The notes under the pieces: generated by a model
What the model saw: the letters and a program-made list of their open reading frames with translations, nothing else
Database searches by the model: none
What the model was told of the DNA's origin: nothing
From: Candidatus Levyibacteriota bacterium
GTDB taxonomy: Bacteria > Patescibacteriota > Microgenomatia > Levybacterales > UBA12049
NCBI GenBank assembly: GCA_016186645.1
Contig: JACPLF010000005.1
Coordinates: forward strand, 109,995 to 173,994
DNA: 64,000 nucleotides
Direction of reading: 5' to 3'
Shown: positions 1-9,733 of the stretch, one piece after another
How positions within the stretch are numbered: the first letter of the stretch is position 1
Layout: each line of letters begins with the position of its first letter
Translations under genes and position numbers: made by a program

Positions 1-18
1 ATAGATAGCACAAAGGAG

Positions 19-445
19 ATGTCTCCTCTTACGGAGATTAATAGGCTTGCAGAATCTTTGCCAGCAGGAGGTTTGGTATTAGATGCGGGTTGCGCTTTTG
101 GGAGAGACACAAAGCTATTTATGGACAGGGGATTTAGGGCTGTTGGAATTGATTTATCTCAACAACGAAGATCTAAAGAAAGCATTGGAAGAATTTCATA
201 GGGTCATAAAAGAAAAGGGTATCTTATTTGTTTCTTTTAAAGAAGGAGAAGGAAGCGAAGAATTAATAGAATCCTTTAGTAGTGACCATCCAAGATTTTA
301 TAATTATCAAACTGCAAATAGCGTAAGGAGTTTCCTTGAAAAATCGGGTTTTAAGCCAACTGAAGTTTTCGTTGTTAATGAAAAAGAAAGATTTGGAAAA
401 GACAAAAGAGATCTAAATTGGGTCTATGCCTTTGCCAGAAAATAA
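19..445 (+). pseudogene. Class I SAM-dependent methyltransferase, apparently frameshifted near nt 170-200
   Basis: ORF 19..201 carries motif I (VLDAGCAFGRDT) and post-I (AVGIDLS). The continuation (LKKALEEFHRVIKEKGILFVSF...) lies in another frame as ORF 83..445. The two frames overlap at 83..201. Confidence 0.45.
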
Positions 446-782
446 TTTTAGTCGCGTTAAAATACTCTGTATTCATGCAATCGCAGCAATATACGGGAAA
501 TAATAAATTAACTAGTGAGTCTAGGGGCATCAGCCTCGTGGCCTATTGAAATTGTAAATCATCACAAATTTTACAATTGCTCAAATTGTGATGATTATTT
601 CCACGTAGCTGAAATGATAAATGTTGGTTTTAAATTCTGAATTAGTTTCAATGTTTCAAAACATTTAAGTAAGTTCAGATTTAGTCTTCCCTAAAGGCTA
701 ATAACTTGACGGCACAAGTTTTTTTCAGACCAAAAGGGAAGAGATGGGGTAGGTTTGGATCTTTTGAAATGGGAGCTTCTTA

Positions 783-890
783 ATCTCTTGAGCTTGACGT
801 TTTGAATTCTTGAAATCAAGATATCAAAAAGTCAAAATCAAAGACGTCCCACTTCCAACTTCAAGGATTCTAACTTTTACTTCTTGACAT
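783..890. repeat. Intergenic palindromic element, copy A (tcttga/tcaaga word type)
   Basis: Homologous to 1800..1921. It ends with the motif cttccaacttcaaggattcta. Confidence 0.6.
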
Positions 891-921
891 TGGTGTATAC
901 AAAGTATACACTAAGTGTATA
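884..921 (+). promoter_or_regulatory. TTGACA -35 box plus a perfect palindrome GTGTATAC-AAA-GTATACAC (93..911), likely the operator/promoter of the antitoxin gene
   Basis: The 19-bp perfect inverted repeat lies directly upstream of the ATG at 921. A TGTATAT repeat follows it. Confidence 0.4.
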
Positions 922-1094
922 TGAATACAGCGGTGATTAATATTAAAACTGATCCCAAAGTTAAAGCACAGGCAAAAAAAATCGCTCGAAAATTAGGTTT
1001 TAGTTTAAGTTCCATAATCAATGCTTTTCTAAAACAGCTTATTAAAACTAGGCGGGTAACTTTTAGTTTGGATGAAGAGCAAAATTGCCGTTGA
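921..1094 (+). CDS. RelB/DinJ-family antitoxin (57 aa); no cognate toxin gene is obvious
   Basis: The translation MNTAVINIKTDPKVKAQAKKIARKLGFSLSSIINAFLKQLIKTRRVTFSLDEEQNCR resembles DinJ ribbon-helix-helix antitoxins. It is under 60 aa, so it is absent from the ORF track. Confidence 0.55.
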   Translation: MNTAVINIKTDPKVKAQAKKIARKLGFSLSSIINAFLKQLIKTRRVTFSLDEEQNCR

Positions 1095-1105
1095 CAGATT
1101 AAGGA

Positions 1106-1435
1106 TTATTTTAGTTTGCGGTCAGATCGTCTATTCTTGATTTCCCTCGTAGCTCTCTTAAGAGCTGGTTTCAAAATTCCGTCTAAAGCTACTAGAAGTC
1201 CAAAAGCCCCTGTCGCAACAAGAAATCCGTGTTTTAAGGCATCGATGTTTTCTGCATGGCCTATTATTTTGTCAGCTGCTGTAAAACTAACACCAAAACT
1301 TATGGTATACAGACCATACTTTTCAACCTCGTTTACTAAAAATTTTTTTGCTTCTTGTGTTCTTCCTATAATACGTTCTTTCATTTCGAGAGTATCGTAC
1401 TCTACTATAAGATTATTGTCAATAACGTATTGCAT
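1106..1435 (-). CDS. Hypothetical small protein with one hydrophobic segment
   Basis: 109-aa ORF with a protein-like composition. It is convergent with the antitoxin gene. The overlapping plus-strand ORF 1116..1469 looks like noise. Confidence 0.3.
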   Translation of the reverse strand: MQYVIDNNLIVEYDTLEMKERIIGRTQEAKKFLVNEVEKYGLYTISFGVSFTAADKIIGHAENIDALKHGFLVATGAFGLLVALDGILKPALKRATREIKNRRSDRKLK

Positions 1436-1469
1436 AAAGAAAAGGAATTTGATATTCTTAATAAGTTTT

Positions 1470-1796
1470 GTGAGCGATCTAAATTTTACCGATCAAACAT
1501 TTAAGAGCGAAGTTTTGGAAAGCTCTGAGCCTGTTATTGTGGATTTTTGGGCGCCATGGTGCGGTCCATGTAGAATTGTTTCTCCAATTATTGATGAATT
1601 AGCAGCGGAATACGCGGGAAAAATAAAAGTTGGAAAACTTAATGTGGATGAAAATCCCCAAACATCAGGACAATATGGAATAATGAGTATTCCAAGTATT
1701 GTATTTTTCAAAAACGGACAGCCGATTAGGACAATGATCGGCGCGCAGAGTAAGGAGAATTATAAAAAGGAAATAGAGGAGATATTAGGAAACTGA
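1470..1796 (+). CDS. trxA: Thioredoxin
   Basis: A GTG start gives MSDLNFTDQTFKSEVLES... with the WCGPC active site. The order and length match E. coli TrxA. Confidence 0.85.
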   Translation: MSDLNFTDQTFKSEVLESSEPVIVDFWAPWCGPCRIVSPIIDELAAEYAGKIKVGKLNVDENPQTSGQYGIMSIPSIVFFKNGQPIRTMIGAQSKENYKKEIEEILGN

Positions 1797-1799
1797 TAT

Positions 1800-1921
1800 T
1801 CTTGAAGTTAGATCTTCTTGACGCTCTTGAATTTGACTCCTTGATATTCTTGATTTCTTGAATTCAAGATTTCAAATATTCAAGATCAAAAATCTCTAAC
1901 TTCCAACTTCAAAAATTCTAT
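1800..1921. repeat. Intergenic palindromic element, copy B; it fills the trxA-trxB gap up to the trxB ATG
   Basis: Shares tcttgaNtcaaga words and the 3' terminal motif ctaacttccaacttcaaaaattcta with copy A and with the copies at 11961 and 47747. Confidence 0.6.
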
Positions 1922-2842
1922 TTGTTTATGTACGACGTTATAATAATTGGTTCCGGACCTGCAGGACTAACTGCTGCGATTTATACGACTCGAGCGAATT
2001 TGAAAACTCTTCTTATTGCAGGAGTTAAATGGGGCGGACAACTTCAGCTTACAACTCTTGTTGAAAATTATCCTGGATTTGCGGAAGGAATCCAAGGCCC
2101 GGACTTAATGACTGCAATGAGAAAACAGGCAGAAAGATTCGGAGCGGAAATAAAAGATGTGGATTTTAAAACTGCGGATTTCTCCAAACCTCCCTTTAAA
2201 GTCTCAGCAGATATCGAAAGCTTTGAGGGAAAATCAGTCATTATCGCAACAGGAGCAGATACAAAATGGCTTGATGTGCCTGGAGAAAAAGAAAAAATCG
2301 GACGGGGAGTGTCATCTTGCGCTCCATGCGATGCATTTTTCTTCAAGGGAAAAAATGTAATTGTTGTCGGAGGAGGAGATAGCGCGATGGAGGAGGCATT
2401 GGTTTTGACTAAATTCGCAAAAGAAATAACGATTATTCATCGCAGAGATGAGTTTAAAGCAAGTCAAATAATGCTTGATCGGGCAAAAAAGAATCCAAAA
2501 ATAAAATTTATTCTAAACTCGGAAGTAATTGAGGTATTAGGACAAGATAAGGTTTCGGGAGTAAAGATTAAAAATAATAAAACCAATCAAGTATCTGAAA
2601 TGCCAGTTGATGGAATTTTTGTGGCAATTGGCCATATACCGAATTCATCTGCATTCAAAGGAATTGATGTTGACGAGAAAGGATTTATCAAAGTTTCGGA
2701 TCATTACAAAACAAATATTGATGGAGTTTTTGTGGCAGGAGATGTTCACGATAACCATTACAAACAAGCAGTCACCGCGGCAGGGTTTGGATGCTCGGCT
2801 GCCCTAGAGGCTGAAAGATGGTTAAGCAATAATGAAGGTTAA
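1922..2842 (+). CDS. trxB: Thioredoxin-disulfide reductase
   Basis: FAD motif GSGPAGLTAAIY, redox-active SCAPCD and the NADPH motif GGGDSAME. 306 aa. Confidence 0.9.
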   Translation: MFMYDVIIIGSGPAGLTAAIYTTRANLKTLLIAGVKWGGQLQLTTLVENYPGFAEGIQGPDLMTAMRKQAERFGAEIKDVDFKTADFSKPPFKVSADIESFEGKSVIIATGADTKWLDVPGEKEKIGRGVSSCAPCDAFFFKGKNVIVVGGGDSAMEEALVLTKFAKEITIIHRRDEFKASQIMLDRAKKNPKIKFILNSEVIEVLGQDKVSGVKIKNNKTNQVSEMPVDGIFVAIGHIPNSSAFKGIDVDEKGFIKVSDHYKTNIDGVFVAGDVHDNHYKQAVTAAGFGCSAALEAERWLSNNEG

Positions 2843-2884
2843 TTTACTTTCGGCACCAATCTCTGCCGCGTTTGACGCGGTGTC

Positions 2885-2965
2885 GATGTTGCGCGGCAAG
2901 CCGCAGCAGGGTTTGGTTGCATGGCAGCATTGGAAGCTGAAAGGTGGCTTCAAGGACCACCATAA
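2885..2965 (+). other. Degenerate GC-rich duplicate of the trxB 3' end (encodes ...DVARQAAAGFGCMAALEAERWLQGPP*)
   Basis: Aligns to the last ~25 codons of trxB (...GDVHDNHYKQAVTAAGFGCSAALEAERWLSNNEG*) at about 75 percent DNA identity. It lies roughly 60 bp downstream of the real stop. Confidence 0.55.
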
Positions 2966-3166
2966 AATATGTGGGTTTTTTATAGCCTTTTCTTTGCCGA
3001 ATTTTAATTTCTCGGTCATGCTCTTTGGCGCAATTCTACTGGCAATGTGAAATAGCTATTTAACTAAACTAAGCGGTCGCTGCATGTAGTTAAATGTCTG
3101 AACTTCATTCCATTGACTTTCTGATTTAAAGAGTATAAAAATAATTTGTAATTTTATTCAGTCAAT

Positions 3167-3643
3167 ATGGGAAAAAACATCGGTTCTGCTTTGAAAAATA
3201 GTAAGACGCTCCATCATGTGAAACATAGTTTGGTTAGATTATTCAAAGACACGAAAAAGAAAAATAGCATTGAGAAGATAGGTTATGTTGCGGGAATAAT
3301 TACTTCAGGTGGACCTGAATATTTCAAAGCAAATAGAAGACGACTGGCTGATTATGTAGGGAAATTACGTAAAATCCACAACTTTCCAATGTTTTCTGCA
3401 ATAGACGTATTTACGAGCGAGGTTTACGAAAGATTAGAGGAGTGGAAACTTCCATTTAGTGAAAGAGAAGTTAAAGCCAGATCTTTTTGGAGAAAAATAT
3501 TAAAAAGCGGACACGTGACAGATATTTTTATGACACCCCGCTTCAAAAAATCAAAAGGAGCAAGTGATGAACACAAAACAGCAAAAGAAATTGGCCTAAC
3601 GATACATTATATGAATGAAGATAAAAAAACAAAAAACAAATAG
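3167..3643 (+). CDS. Hypothetical protein (158 aa)
   Basis: Clean ORF followed by a strong intrinsic terminator. No motif I can name. Confidence 0.5.
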   Translation: MGKNIGSALKNSKTLHHVKHSLVRLFKDTKKKNSIEKIGYVAGIITSGGPEYFKANRRRLADYVGKLRKIHNFPMFSAIDVFTSEVYERLEEWKLPFSEREVKARSFWRKILKSGHVTDIFMTPRFKKSKGASDEHKTAKEIGLTIHYMNEDKKTKNK

Positions 3644-3687
3644 CCATTGACACGGCAAAATGGCTATGATAATATTGCAAATGGAAT

Positions 3688-3716
3688 CACCCCGCCTAGG
3701 CGGGGGTTTATTCGTT
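3688..3716 (+). terminator. Rho-independent terminator (caccccgcc-tag-ggcgggggt plus a T-run)
   Basis: GC stem followed by TTTATTCGTTT. Confidence 0.6.
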
Positions 3717-3854
3717 TATGATAAGAAACTTTCAAGCAATAAAAGTAGTAAATAATACTCAGGTTCTTTTATTGTCTTCGTAAAAAGGGTTCTTCATAAA
3801 TAGATTTACGCGATCCCGTATTGCCTGCCTGACGGCAGACAGGTCTGACATTGG

Positions 3855-3930
3855 GGGCCGTTAGTTCATCTGGTAGAATACTTCATTTGCAATGAAGAGG
3901 TAGGGAGTTCGAGTCTCCCACGGTCCACCA
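3855..3930 (+). tRNA. tRNA-Ala (anticodon TGC), CCA encoded
   Basis: Acceptor stem gggccgt/acggtcc with G3:U70. Anticodon loop tttgcaa. T-arm gggagttcgagtctccc. Lies upstream of the 23S gene. Confidence 0.85.
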
Positions 3931-4630
3931 GTAAATTAACGGCAAAGATAACGGGATCATGATTTAGTAGCTGGTTCTTGGTCTTTCGTTTCAGAAGTTC
4001 TCTGACAAAGACCAGAAACTAGCGACTAAATATTCTGGCTCTTTGACCCTCCTGCGCTAAAAGCTACGGAAGGGTCAATAAGCAAAAACAAACCGTTAAG
4101 GTTAGAGACGGCATCGCCACTCGAAGCTTTAGCGAAGTGTGGCTCTTTGACAAGTGAGGAGAAGCCCTATACAAAGCTTGCTTCGCGTCGGAGGCTTACA
4201 GTCTCGCGCCCGCGAAGTGCGCTTGTACAGGGTAAATTTTTTAATTTTAAAATCTACTCATAATGCCGATAATGAATGCCTAGGAGATTTTGGCCGAGGA
4301 AGGACGCAGACGGCGGCGATACTCGTTGGGGAGGTGCCATCAACCTTTGATCCAGCGGTTTCCGAATGGAGCAATCCACTCGTCTTTGACGAGGAGCCAC
4401 TCATAAAAATATTACCGCAAGGTTTTATATAGTGTTTGGCAGGGTACGGCGCGAACCGAAACATCCAAGTAGCGCCAGGAAAATAAATCATAGACCCCGT
4501 TAGAACTTTGGTAGTAAAACTTGTTACGTTAAGAAAGATTTTGCTAACTTAACTTGAGAAGAGACTTTATTTCCAGAGTTCTAACGGGGTAGAGATTCCG
4601 TTAGTAGCGGCGAGCGAAAGCGGAACAGTC

Positions 4631-4755
4631 TAAAGCGTGCGTAGCACGCAACAGTCAACCAACAACACTTCGCCTTTGGCGAATTTCAACAAACAACAAA
4701 AATTGTTGTGAGTTGTTTGTTGTAAGTTGAAGGTTGCATGCTGCGCATGCGGTTG
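4631..4755 (+). repeat. IVS-like structured insertion in the 23S 5' domain, copy 1
   Basis: About 85 percent identical to 9214..9333. It contains the hairpins gcgtgcgtagcacgc and caacaaacaacaaaaattgttgtgagttgtttgttg. Confidence 0.6.
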
Positions 4756-4938
4756 CAGGGCAGACGATATTCGATGTATTTTTTGTAGCAGAAGGACCCG
4801 GAATGGTCCCCCAAAGAAAGTGAAAGGCTCGTACGCAAAACAAAAAATACCGATAGTTTGTTCCTAAGTACCATGGAGCACGATAAAACTCTGTGGGAAT
4901 CTGGGGCGTCCACGCTCCAAGACTAAATACCAGAATCT

Positions 4939-4977
<39 letters not shown>

Positions 4978-5562
4978 CACCCCGGAAGGGGAATGAAATA
5001 GAACTGAAATTGTCGGCTGACAAGCAGGCAGAGGAACGTAACGCGCAAGCGTGTACGTTCTGATGCCGTGCCTATTGAAGAATGAACCGGTGAGTTATTC
5101 CCTCACTTTCGTCTAAGCCATTAAGTGGCGCAGGCAAAGTGAAAGCAAGCTCTAATTGAGCATTTTTAAAGTGTGGGATTAGACCCGAAGCTGGGTGAGC
5201 TAACCTTGGGCAGGGTGAATCCCGATGAAAATCGGGAGGAGGCCCGAACTCGTGACTGTAGCAATAGTCTGAGATGACCTGAGGTTAGGGGCAATATGCC
5301 AATCGAACCCAGAGATAGCTGGTTCTCCCCGAAATATATTTAGGTATAGCGGTCGCCATGTAGTTGCCTGGGGTAGAGCACTAAATGGTTCGCGGCAACG
5401 CAAGTTGTCGTAACCAATTAAACTCCGAATACAGAGCAACATTGGGCGACTAGTCAGACTGGTCGGGCTAAGCCGATGGGTCAAAAGGGAAACAACCCAG
5501 ACTCCCAATTAAGGTCTCTAAATAAAAGCTAAGTTTAGAAGGAAGTCAAGTTCCATAGACAA

Positions 5563-5593
<31 letters not shown>

Positions 5594-6488
5594 TAAAGAA
5601 AGCGTAACAGCTCACTGGCGGATTGGAATTTGGCGCCCAAAATTTAACGAGGATTAAGCTTTTTACCGAAGTTGGAGGAACGTACACTTTTGCTTTGCAA
5701 AATGTTACGTTCGGTAGGGGAGCGTTCTAAGTGCAGCGAAGTCGTGGTGTAAACCATGGTGGAGTGCTTAGAAGTGAGAATGCCGGTATGAGTAGCGAGT
5801 GTCTGGTGAGAAACCAGGCCGCCGAAAACCCAAGGTTTCCTCCGCAATGTAAATCAGCGGAGGGTTAGTCGGTCCTAAGGGTGTTCCTCTTTGGTCCTAA
5901 GGGTGTTCCTCTTTTGGGGAGTAGCCCGATGGGCAAGTCGTTGAGATTCGACTACAAATTATACATATTCTAAGGGGAAGTCGAAGATAGAAGAATCAAG
6001 GCCAGCTAAGCTGGCTTTAAGTAGTGAAATAGGATGAAATGGTAAATACGTTCATCTGTTTAATTAAGCTACGATGAAAACCCTGAGAGCAATCGAAGGG
6101 TATTTGATCGCTTTTAACTTCCGAGAAATATCCCATTAGTTCCATTCATTTGTGAAAAAATGTATATTTTACCGTACCGACATCCGACACAGGTGGGTTG
6201 GTCGAGAAGACTAAGGCGAACGGGAGAAAGATGGTCAAGGAACTCGGCAATAAATCTGGGCGTAACTTTTGGAGATGCCCTACCAGCTACCATGCGGTAC
6301 CTGGTTGCAACAAAAGATTATTAAGCGACTGTTTATCTAAAACACAGGTCCATGCAAAACTGAAAAGTTAAGTATATGGGCTGAAGCCTGCCCAGTGCTG
6401 GTAAGTCAAAAGTTGAGAATCAGGCTCGCAAGAGTCAAAGTTTTTAACTTAAGCTCCAGTAAACGGCAGCAGTAACTATAAGAAATTG

Positions 6489-7190
6489 TAGTTGTAAAAG
6501 TCGACTAAATGCTGGAAAATCCGTACCGTGATTCTGCTTTACAGAACAAACGGTTGCAGTATCTGACGCTACCATGTATTATGGTAATAATGCGATCAGT
6601 GCGGACAATCAGCAGGAAAGACTTGACGAAGAAAGAGCTAGGATTTTTCCTTGCTGGGTTTGTTGAAGGAGAAGGAAGTTTTAATGTCTCGTTACGGCGC
6701 AAGCCTGACTATAGACTCAAATGGCAAGCGGTAATGAGTTTTAATGTTTCGCAAAAAGACCCTACCTTATTAAAAATTTTAAAGGAGGAGCTAAAATGCG
6801 GAATTATTAAAACACGTAAAAGAGACAATCTATATTCCTTTGATGCAACAAATCCTAAGGATCTAATCCAGAAAGTCATTCCATATTTCAAAAAATATCC
6901 AGTTCAATCTGATTCTAAAAAGAATAATTTTTCTATTTTTTGCAAGATAGCAAAATTAATGGAAAAAGGGGAACACAGAAATTTGGCTGGATTAAGGTTA
7001 ATCCTAAAACTTCGAGAGAAAATAAACATTGGAGCAGGAAGAACAAGGAAATATGATATAGATGATGTTTTTTCTAAGTCAGGAATCCTCAGAGACTATA
7101 CGTCGACGTCCCGCTCAGCGGGACATGATATAGTCCGACCTCATGAACGATCATGAGACTCTGTAATCAATCAGAGTACCGCGATTAGCG
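6489..7190 (+). mobile_element. 23S intron 1, inserted after GTAACTATAA (E. coli ~1917); carries a LAGLIDADG homing endonuclease ORF
   Basis: The exon sequence breaks after gtaactataa and resumes with ctgttctaaggtagcgaa. The intervening sequence encodes the endonuclease. Confidence 0.7.
6509..7156 (+). CDS. LAGLIDADG homing endonuclease (intron-encoded)
   Basis: Contains LAGFVEGEGSF and a second, degenerate motif. The probable start is the ATG at 6590 (MRSVRTISRKDL...). Confidence 0.75.
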   Translation: MLENPYRDSALQNKRLQYLTLPCIMVIMRSVRTISRKDLTKKELGFFLAGFVEGEGSFNVSLRRKPDYRLKWQAVMSFNVSQKDPTLLKILKEELKCGIIKTRKRDNLYSFDATNPKDLIQKVIPYFKKYPVQSDSKKNNFSIFCKIAKLMEKGEHRNLAGLRLILKLREKINIGAGRTRKYDIDDVFSKSGILRDYTSTSRSAGHDIVRPHERS

Positions 7191-7232
7191 GGATAACAAT
7201 GTGAACTGTTCTAAGGTAGCGAAGCCCCTTGT

Positions 7233-7496
7233 CGGGTGATGGAAAAAGCCCGAAAACTGGCTTAAAACGGTGAAGCCCTACCATGTTGCATCGTACAAGA
7301 CGATGTGTAAAAATAGAGGGTGATACCGTGGGTAAGACTTTCTTTTAAAAGAGAGAACCTGTAACGACTTGTCCCGCCAAAGGCGGGACAGAGACATAAT
7401 TTTTATGTCTAATACGCCAGCATTTAGTATAGATTTCATTGGACATTATCTTTCAGGAGATGCCGAAGCCCTATAAAAATCGGGCAGAAGGACAAT
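7233..7496 (+). other. Highly divergent, shortened 23S domain IV/V segment (corresponds to E. coli ~1936-2440)
   Basis: Only loose similarity to the canonical exon sequence. The universally conserved AAGTTCCGACCTGCACGAATGG and GACGGAAAGACCCCGTGAACCTTTACTATA blocks are not found. A weak match (catttagtatagatttcattggacattat) and gtctggtgggcag follow. Confidence 0.4.
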
Positions 7497-7787
7497 GTCT
7501 GGTGGGCAGTTTAACTGGGACGGTTGACTCCTACAATGCAACGGAGTCGTACAAAGGTTGGCTAGCTCCGGATGGAAATCGGAGTGATAGTGCAAAGGCA
7601 TAAGCCAGCTTGACTGCGAGACTTACAAGTCGAGCAGGGACGAAAGTCGGTCTTAGTGATCCTCAGTAGCATAGTGGTATGCTCTGAGCTTAACGGATAA
7701 AAGCTACCCTGGGGATAACAGGCTTATCGCATCCAAGCGTTCACAGCGACGATGCGGTTTGGCACCTCGATGTCGGCTTAACACAAA

Positions 7788-8186
7788 TAGTGTTTGGGCC
7801 CTTCAGTAAATAATTACTGTTGTAAATTTGGCTAATAACGGTGGACTCCTAATTGACTAAGTAAAGTTTCTCAAGTTATGATAAAGTCAATGGACAATAC
7901 CGTGGGAAGTCGCATTTTTCAGAACACTCGGAAGACTCGGTTTTCCAGGAACATCAGAATATCTGGCTATCAGATTGTCTGAGCCTCTGGTTTACTGAGT
8001 AATAATCTGAGTTTTCTGAAATATTGTTGACCCCGTAACGACTGATTCTTTAGCAAACTAAATTGAACCCTTAGTTTGTAATAGATGAGATTCCAGTTTT
8101 TGGAATCATACGCCGAACCCCTCTCTTTTTTCAAAAAAGTGGGGGTGATGATATAGTCTACACTTCTAGTAACAGAAGATTCATGT
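7788..8186 (+). mobile_element. 23S intron 2 (ORF-less), inserted after GATGTCGGCT; it contains repeat R1
   Basis: The exon resumes with catcgcatcctggggg...gggtcgggctgttcgcccgttaaagcggtacgcgagctgggttcagaacgtcgtaagacagt. Confidence 0.65.
7921..8022. repeat. R-family MITE-like element, copy R1 (inside 23S intron 2)
   Basis: Carries the terminal motifs cagaacactcggaagactcgg and ctgagttttctgaaat shared with R2 to R5. Confidence 0.6.
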
Positions 8187-8212
8187 GCATCGCATCCTGG
8201 GGGTGGAGAAGC

Positions 8213-8272
<60 letters not shown>

Positions 8273-8280
8273 AAGACAGT

Positions 8281-9028
8281 AGACCTATAGCGTTAATTAC
8301 GCTATTAAATGAGCTGTCTATAAATCTAGCTATTTGCTGGAAACTCCGAGTATCTTCAACTACTTGACAAATGACTTATCGTAGAGATACGATATCTCTA
8401 TGTCTAGTGATAATGTTGGAAGTGCGGACAATCAGCAGGCAGCTGGGAAAGAAATTTCTAATGAGTATTTAGCAGGATTCACCGATGGTGAAGGGTGTTT
8501 CTATGTGGGATTTGGTAAGAGAAAAGACCTGCCGCTTAAATGGCAAGTAATTACCGAATTTCATGTAAGTCAAAATCCAGGCGGGAAAAATGTTTTGGAA
8601 GAGTTCAGAGAAAGGCTTGGTTGTGGCTATTTAAAGCCCAATCATGCAAAGAGCTTGAAAGACAAAACTTGGATTTTAATTGTGAAAGATAGAAAGGATT
8701 TAAAAGAAAAACTTATTCCTTTTTTTCAGCAACACAGATTGCACACAAGCAAACAAAAAGATTTTGAAATCTTTGTAAAAGTGCTTGAAAAAATTGAAAC
8801 GGGAAAGCATTTAACTAAAGATGGTTTTAAACAAATCGTTGAATTAGTTTTTGCCACTACCAGGGTAACAAATAAAAGATATTCAAAAGAATCACTTCTT
8901 TCCTAGAGCCTCAGAGACTACATGCTAGATGATGCATTGAATAGTGCGTCAAAGATATAGTCCGAACTGCATGGCGACATGTAGAGCGTATCAGAAATGC
9001 TACGTCATTCGTAAGAATGTAACATATT
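8281..9028 (+). mobile_element. 23S intron 3, inserted after GTCGTAAGACAGT (E. coli ~2595); carries a second LAGLIDADG homing endonuclease ORF
   Basis: The exon resumes with cggtctctatccagga...cccctagtacgagaggac. Confidence 0.7.
8400..8906 (+). CDS. LAGLIDADG homing endonuclease (intron-encoded)
   Basis: Contains LAGFTDGEGCFYV. It shares the 19-nt string agtgcggacaatcagcagg with the first endonuclease gene, in a different reading frame. Confidence 0.75.
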   Translation: MSSDNVGSADNQQAAGKEISNEYLAGFTDGEGCFYVGFGKRKDLPLKWQVITEFHVSQNPGGKNVLEEFRERLGCGYLKPNHAKSLKDKTWILIVKDRKDLKEKLIPFFQQHRLHTSKQKDFEIFVKVLEKIETGKHLTKDGFKQIVELVFATTRVTNKRYSKESLLS

Positions 9029-9160
9029 GTCGGTCTCTATCCAGGACAACCGATTGAGATTTGAGGAGATTCGCCCCTAGTACGAGAGGACTGGGATGAG
9101 GAAATCCCTGGTGTGCCAGTTGTTCTTACAAGAGCATCGCTGGGTAACTATATTTCCAAC

Positions 9161-9193
<33 letters not shown>

Positions 9194-9213
9194 GTCTCCA
9201 ATATTAGATCTCT

Positions 9214-9333
9214 AGCGTGCGTAGCACGCAACAGTCAACAATCAACACAGCCGATTCAATCGGCTTTTCAACAGACAACAAAATTGTTGTAAGTTGTTTG
9301 TGGTAAGTTGAAAGTTGCATGCTGCGCATGCAT
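9214..9333 (+). repeat. IVS-like structured insertion in the 23S 3' domain, copy 2
   Basis: Homolog of 4631..4755. Compensatory hairpin changes (cttcgcctttggcgaa versus cagccgattcaatcggct) show it is a structured RNA. Confidence 0.6.
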
Positions 9334-9563
9334 AAGCCCCTTGTAGATCACGAGGTTGATAGGCAGGCAGTGGAAGAACCGCAAGGTTTTAAGCTTACCT
9401 GTACTAATGGTTGAACGAGTAGATTTAAAAATTACCGTGCCCCGCAAAAAGTGCTCTTCGAGCCCGCTACGAATAGTAGCTAAGGCGAAAAGTAAACTTT
9501 GTGGGGTATTCTCCTCACATGTCAGAGAGTCAATTGTACATTGATTTTTGAAGAAAGTAATTC

Positions 9564-9680
9564 TCTGGTAATTAGAGCGACGTGGAACTACCCTTTCCCA
9601 TTCCGAACAGGGAAGTAAAACGCGTCAGCGCTTACGATACTTTTTGCGTATTGCAGAAGGGACAATAGGTCATTGCCAGG
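9564..9680 (+). rRNA. rrf: 5S rRNA
   Basis: Terminal helix tctggtaat/attgccagg. The conserved CCCATTCCGAACAGGGAAGT block is present. Confidence 0.8.
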
Positions 9681-9733
9681 GGATTTCTTTCTTCAAAGGA
9701 AAATTTAAATAAGAATCCACTCCTCACTTTTCT

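Follow-up and report, generated by a model that had tools for sequence, protein, structure and literature searches.

The 23S rRNA gene described here raises the question of whether a member of the Candidatus Levybacteria encodes a genuinely reduced or divergent ribosomal RNA, or whether the unrecognizable segment in the middle of its gene has some other origin. The window, by which we mean the whole 64-kb stretch of DNA that was analyzed, had been described in the initial annotation as reading normally up to CTTGTCGGGT (7228-7237) and again from GTCTGGTGGGCAG (7497), and both anchors are borne out. Between them, AAGTTCCGACCTGCACGAATGG and GACGGAAAGACCCCGTGAACC had been listed as missing, and a search of the entire window at up to 3 mismatches indeed returned zero matches to either. 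The further statement that the canonical conserved blocks are unrecognizable agrees with a query covering E. coli 1940-2240, for which neither BLAST nor nhmmer returned anything corresponding to 1952-2222. What did not withstand comparison with E. coli K-12 rrlH is the assignment of the interval to E. coli ~1936-2440: the last base of CTTGTCGGGT is 1951 and the first of GTCTGGTGGG is 2230, and the true interval is therefore E. coli 1952-2229, which is 278 nt and not ~500 nt long. Nor is the segment short at only ~265 nt, since close relatives have 258 nt there, E. coli 278 nt and the window 259 nt. The apparent compression from ~500 to 265 nt is thus a numbering error.

The gene sits on the + strand of the window, with tRNA-Ala(UGC) at 3855, the 23S gene at ~4250-9420 and 5S at 9564-9681, and the S1 protein encoded downstream of 5S has 80-86% identity to homologues from Candidatus Levybacteria (CPR/Patescibacteria) MAGs; by the proteins encoded around the gene, the window belongs to that group. 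Upstream of tRNA-Ala and 23S lie TrxB and a thioredoxin gene instead of 16S; no 16S gene was found in the window, nor upstream of tRNA-Ala and 23S in either window 1-3855 or L007:1-6000, and 16S appears to be unlinked in the Levybacteria lineage. Three tRNA-Ala genes (UGC, CGC and GGC, at 3855, 21257 and 21435) fall within 18 kb. For comparison we used five Candidatus Levybacteria loci, namely L007, which supplies a full 23S gene (2259 bits), L023, L024 and L025, which were reached via homologues of the L1917 endonuclease, and L146.

23S genes of CPR bacteria are commonly interrupted by group I introns (PMC11270868), and mapping against E. coli K-12 rrlH and L007 placed several in this gene, all on the + strand. 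After E. coli U1917, a group I intron occupies 6480-7203 (exon mapping; RF00028 match at 6925-7157) and carries a LAGLIDADG homing endonuclease ORF at 6509-7156 (Pfam LAGLIDADG_1, E 5e-22); it is common to L023-L025 at 89-90% identity. It is followed by a mini-exon of 34 nt (7204-7237), which BLAST matches to E. coli 1918-1951, whose last base is U1951 and which is identical to that of L023-L025. The next recognizable 23S sequence is a native exon at 7466-7778, roughly E. coli 2197-2511, which is matched by the Rfam LSU model at 7426-7707 and holds H79 (7468-7485), the 3' strand of H75 and the P loop (7516-7522). An ORF-less group I intron then follows E. coli U2511 (7779-8187; RF00028 match at 7770-8179, 38 bits), with boundaries GTCGGCT/TAACAC at its 5' end and CATGTG/CATCGC at its 3' end, and a further group I intron lies after about E. 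coli 2604 (8281-9029; exon mapping, Pfam, RF00028 match at 8819-8984) with a LAGLIDADG ORF at 8400-8906. By Pfam, both LAGLIDADG endonuclease ORFs of the gene are intact. The relatives' counterpart of the U2511 intron (L023:3396-3742) lies after U2500, 11 nt upstream of the site used in the window, and closely related genomes thus differ in where the intron is inserted. Elsewhere in the gene, a 119-nt insertion rich in inverted repeats (9214-9332, roughly E. coli 2790, near the 3' end), where L007 has 17 nt, probably represents either an expansion segment or an intervening sequence, and domain I carries insertions of ~86 nt (4504-4589) and ~117 nt (4635-4751) relative to L023-L024, which cmscan scored as inserts of 101 and 99 nt.

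The relatives establish what should occupy the interval. All five read CTTGTCGGG(T/C) followed by (G/A)AGTTCCGACCTGCACGAAAGG, with a complete intron in between in L146 only. A comparison on both sides of the interval was possible in four of them (L007 and L023-L025), and these go on to GACAAAAAGACCCCA(A/G)GAGCTTTACTGTATC and then to a somewhat short L1 stalk. Their exon includes AGTTCCGACCTGCACGAAAGG and GACAAAAAGACCCC, and they hold both conserved blocks, E. coli 1952-1973 and 2053-2073, neither of which is in the window. The contig of L146 stops shortly past the first of these blocks, E. coli 1952-1973, which is the only one visible there; its endonuclease is closer to that of the window (92% identity), and its complete L1951 intron, of another type, is followed by normal exon. 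Up to 7239 the window and L023-L025 share one sequence, and similarity returns at 7466, with 96.7-98.3% identity to L007 and L023-L025 beyond that point, leaving a non-homologous block at 7240-7465 that measures 226 nt against 225 nt in L023-L025 with zero similarity between them; by the L007 anchors the lengths are 231 nt in the window and 230 nt in L007. The block is thus a sharply bounded substitution of near-equal length, a foreign sequence in place of the native exon, E. coli about 1954-2196.

Absent together with this exon are the L1 stalk, H71-H74, the 5' strand of H75 and, in the peptidyl-transferase ring, the A2058-A2062 side, in agreement with the original remark that the affected region bears the L1 stalk and part of that ring. 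The Rfam bacterial LSU model leaves positions 2044-2097 unaligned on the window (its first match ends inconsistently between two runs, at 7299 and at 6592), and the covariance alignment shrinks ~130 L1-stalk model positions to ~43 nt. The model does not align across H73-H78; H79 and the 3' strand of H75 are native. A search for the missing blocks elsewhere, proposed for the whole genome, found them absent across the 64-kb window by the Rfam LSU model, BLAST, nhmmer and the mismatch search alike. Exons with the strands that would pair in the missing helices have 97-98% identity to relatives, and they show no co-adaptation to the loss. Branch length proved uninformative as a test for a pseudogene: domains II-IV have 84-86% identity to the relatives, which have 92-94% among themselves, as befits a more distant species.

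Two nucleotide-level features of this part of the molecule are common to the relatives. Their peptidyl-transferase ring (L023:2960-2985, with equivalents in L007, L024 and L025) reads GACAAAAAGACCCC where E. coli has GACGGAAAGACCCC, G2056 and G2057 both being A in L007 and L023-L025; the corresponding segment of the window is missing. The P loop of the window (7514-7525) reads CUGGGACGG, in which the normally invariant G2253 is A (at 7520) and the G2246-C2258 pair has become A-U. Both P-loop changes recur in the four Levybacteria relatives that cover the site (L007, L023-L025), and position 2253 is G in 44 of 44 other CPR 23S loci compared, so that this tRNA-binding nucleotide is changed throughout the lineage.

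Most of the foreign block can be identified. A family profile and a MAFFT alignment establish positions 7238-7420 (~183 nt) as the 5' two-thirds, P1 through P3', of an L1951-family group I intron. This family is common in the 23S genes of CPR bacteria, and it is widespread in CPR metagenomes. An nhmmer profile of the family's 5' part matches window 7250-7421 (53.9 bits, E 3e-16) and the match ends exactly at the end of the model, at P3'. The helices were assigned by eye against the family alignment. P1 pairs UCGGGU (7232-7237) with GCCCGA (7248-7253) and includes the splice-site U.G pair typical of group I introns; it is followed by P3 (7257-7261), P4 (7267-7272/7324-7329), P5 (7275-7279/7317-7321), P5a (7287-7307), P6 (7330-7360), J6/7 with the 5' strand of P7 (GUAACGACU, 7361-7369), P7.1 (7370-7390), P7.2 (7391-7410) and P3' (7416-7420), all on the + strand, and P2 is absent from the fragment. 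The predicted fold of this intron part is stable (z = -5.8). A metagenome scan for the motif GCCCGA-N-ATACCGTGGG-N-GTAACGAC returned at least 120 loci that carry the same GCCCGA guide sequence, and in 103 of these at least 120 the element stands after GTCGGGT and is followed by AGTTCCGACC, the normal 3' exon. ORF-less introns of the family measure 251-412 nt, and those that encode an ORF 688-981 nt. The closest natural architecture was found outside the motif scan in L054 and L062, which have no P2, a long P5 and a LAGLIDADG ORF in P8, and which also continue into normal 3' exon; homology in the block breaks off where these two have the P8 ORF. Differences from known members keep their pairing: P3 is CUGGC/GCCAG where the family has CUGAC/GUCAG (by eye), and both P3 and the P5a stem differ from those of L054/L062 with pairing preserved. 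The intron at 7779-8187 belongs to the same structural class as the fragment, with ATACCGTGGG, GTAACGAC and ATACGCC in common.

The remainder of the intron is not there. The block has no P8, J8/7 or P9, no terminal G, and no 3' strand of P7 to form the guanosine pocket. Neither AGTC nor GTATAGTC occurs in 7369-7520, and P7 therefore cannot form. A profile of the family's 3' tail (the last 110 nt of 103 introns) finds nothing in 7421-7465, and the same profile detects J8/7-P7'-P9 of other introns in the window, at 8952-8985 and 8142-8176. RF00028 gives zero matches at E <= 1 in 7238-7465, where complete members of the L1951 family score 34-39 bits and the other three introns of the window 27-38 bits. 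The terminal G with its cognate 3' exon, AAGUUCCGACC, is absent from the entire window and present after 103 of the at least 120 family introns. The earlier option of a further unrecognized intron was therefore right in that a genuine L1951 group I 5' part is present, and wrong in that this is a truncated copy for which the window has no 3' exon.

The last 45 nt of the block (7421-7465, + strand) form a tail of unassignable origin that has no significant similarity to either of its expected sources. Local alignment to the relatives' exon gave p = 0.13-0.38, and 186 of 200 shuffles scored at least as well as the tail itself did in its best match among 103 intron tails. A translated search with a spurious 53-aa ORF of the block returned no homologue. 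An origin by copying from another part of the window fared no better, since all that the block has in common with the remaining sequence is chance 10-13-mers and short motifs of the 7779-8187 intron. The tail does contain a stretch at 7437-7449 (UUCAUUGGACAUU) that can pair with exon 7494-7506 (AAUGUCUGGUGGG), mimicking the 5' strand of H75; the duplex has an energy of -25.6 kcal/mol against -16.3 +/- 3.3 for shuffles (p about 0.009). This partner of the H75 3' strand has no significant sequence homology to the 5' strand of the relatives. An alternative boundary, with the exon resuming at 7419 (about E. coli 2071) and compensatory changes by eye in H74/H75, is at best a weak rival, as the relatives place the start of native sequence at 7466.

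Comparison with known systems clarifies which features are ordinary and which are not. L1951 introns of CPR/Patescibacteria 23S genes, reported there as position 1952, were described by Tsurumaki et al. 2024 (PMC11270868), and the arrangement in the window fits the insertion sites 1917 and 1952 reported in that work. The fragment resembles these introns in its site after U1951, its guide GCCCGA, the core motifs AACGGUG, AUACCGUGGG and GUAACGAC and two extra hairpins between P7 and P3', and relatives of it often carry a LAGLIDADG ORF; unlike them, the window copy ends after P3', without P8, J8/7, P7', P9, terminal G or 3' exon. In Coxiella burnetii, Cbu.L1917 and Cbu.L1951 flank a 34-bp exon of the 23S gene (Raghavan et al. 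2007, as cited in PMC11270868), and the title of that study states that both introns self-splice. As far as that citation describes it, the layout is the same in the window, with group I introns at 1917 and 1951, a 34-nt exon between them (7204-7237) and a LAGLIDADG endonuclease encoded by the first. The Coxiella burnetii 23S exon is normal beyond both introns, whereas in the window the second intron is truncated and the next exon missing. The locus also recalls the trans-spliced group I introns of organelles in that the 5' intron half stands on its 5' exon and the break falls in the peripheral P8 region; it departs from them in that neither a 3' half nor the missing exon was found in the 64 kb and the fragment is joined in cis to the downstream exon. 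Trans-splicing of group I introns is not known from bacteria, nor from the rRNA of the Levybacteria lineage. A local, sharply bounded non-homologous block in a conserved rRNA gene is what chimeric or misassembled rRNA operons of MAGs show, yet the usual chimera is an in-register switch between related rRNAs, and the block is instead an equal-length substitution by an intron fragment. The fragment has neither the catalytic features of a group I intron nor the conserved blocks of 23S rRNA, and works like no system with which we compared it.

A 23S rRNA without H71-H74, A2058-A2062 and the L1 stalk cannot function. A transcript of this locus would keep a non-splicing insert and form no peptidyl-transferase centre, from which we infer that the gene as written is non-functional. 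Pseudo-rRNA and misassembly, both raised at the outset, are the two readings left standing. We put at roughly 0.6 the probability that the block is an artefact of in-silico reconstruction, be it misassembly of the rRNA operon, gap fill or otherwise non-native sequence, and judged from sequence such an origin seems more likely than a real defective allele. It is favoured because a probably single-copy gene would hardly be expected to have a lethal allele as its consensus, because the flanks and intron ORFs are pristine, and because the substituted stretch departs from the native length by no more than 1 nt. Against it count the natural appearance of the intron fragment, whose P3 and P5a differences keep pairing, the complementarity of tail and exon beyond chance (p about 0.009), which a random misjoin would not predict, and the lack of any nameable assembler mechanism for a same-length substitution. 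The region is evidently hard to assemble, because independent assemblies of this clade break at or inside the operon: L003 (Logan run SRR12113420), reached via TrxB and the sole identical public contig, is identical to window 1-3795 and ends at 3795, just before the operon, L004, the closest by S1 protein, starts at window-equivalent 7600, inside 23S, and L005 starts at about 9373. No identical protein is on record for S1 (with either of two start sites), RadA, both LAGLIDADG ORFs or two spurious ORFs that cross the block. A real but dead allele, in which one or more deletions would have removed P8-P9 of an ORF-bearing L1951 intron together with the downstream exon, is a tentative second account of the resulting pseudo-23S, for example as a second decaying operon, a minority allele or the outcome of botched homing repair. 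It would accommodate the well-formed intron 5' part at the correct site after U1951, the position of the LAGLIDADG ORF of L054/L062 in P8, precisely where homology ends, and the occurrence of L1951 introns in Levybacteria relatives. Such an allele is subject to the same objection that a lethal sequence is not expected as the consensus of a probably single-copy gene, it finds no decay elsewhere in the gene, where the endonuclease ORFs are intact and the flanks 97-100% identical to relatives, and a single deletion leaves unexplained both the 45-nt tail, with its dissimilarity to the exon of the relatives, and the near-equal length (226 vs 225 nt).

The readings in which the locus is functional fare considerably worse. 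Natural trans-spliced group I introns of organelles are split in peripheral intron loops, and the break at the start of P8, the intact 5' half through P3' and the pairing of the tail with the H75 3' strand would suit a split gene in which E. coli 1952-~2196 and the 3' half of the intron are encoded elsewhere, to be joined by trans-splicing or used as a fragmented rRNA in trans. We consider this very unlikely: the 64-kb window holds no LSU fragment and no intron 3' half elsewhere, the downstream exon is fused to the tail without a recognizable 3' intron half, so that its own 5' end has no splice partner, the exon is contiguous in all five relatives, and we know of no split or trans-spliced rRNA system of this kind in bacteria. 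That the locus is both real and used, with 23S rRNA built from separately encoded pieces and the segment 1952-~2196 supplied from another locus, is more doubtful still. Similarly improbable is a reduced or divergent functional rRNA, the reading implied by cmscan and raised in the initial annotation, in which 7419-7465 would represent H74/H75 in shrunken form plus a mini L1 stalk and the remainder a lineage-specific replacement, even though cmscan places 7426 onward at model position 2097, AGC(A)UUU could by eye pair with AAAGCU in H74, and UUGGACAUU could by eye pair with AAUGUCU in H75, the latter with support from the duplex energy. H71-H73 and A2058-A2062 are universally required and are absent here, and 7238-7420 is demonstrably intron sequence. 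Four of the relatives (L007, L023-L025) have flanks 97-100% identical to the window, all five have normal conserved blocks, and those at 97-98% flank identity possess H71-H73, A2058-A2062 and the L1 stalk. Nor is this an evolved reduction, because the partner strands are unchanged, being as conserved as in relatives that possess those helices. Least credible of all is a complete tiny intron of about 228 nt that joins U1951 directly to A7466. The last base of the block is a G (7465) and family members can be as small as 251 nt, but P7 cannot form, P8 and J8/7 are absent, RF00028 is silent on the block, and the spliced product would still be without ~245 nt of essential rRNA.

In summary, the foreign block at 7240-7465 means that the short, divergent 23S segment first reported is not a real feature of the rRNA, that a ribosome without H71-H78 is not upheld as a biological claim, and that the Levybacteria lineage has a normal segment at this position. 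Were the junctions real and the exon encoded elsewhere, the locus would represent the first fragmented or trans-spliced bacterial rRNA, an outcome that the present evidence makes unlikely. The finding serves instead as a quality flag, in that this 23S gene model needs read-level validation before it enters phylogenies, inferences about "reduced CPR ribosomes" or catalogues of introns.
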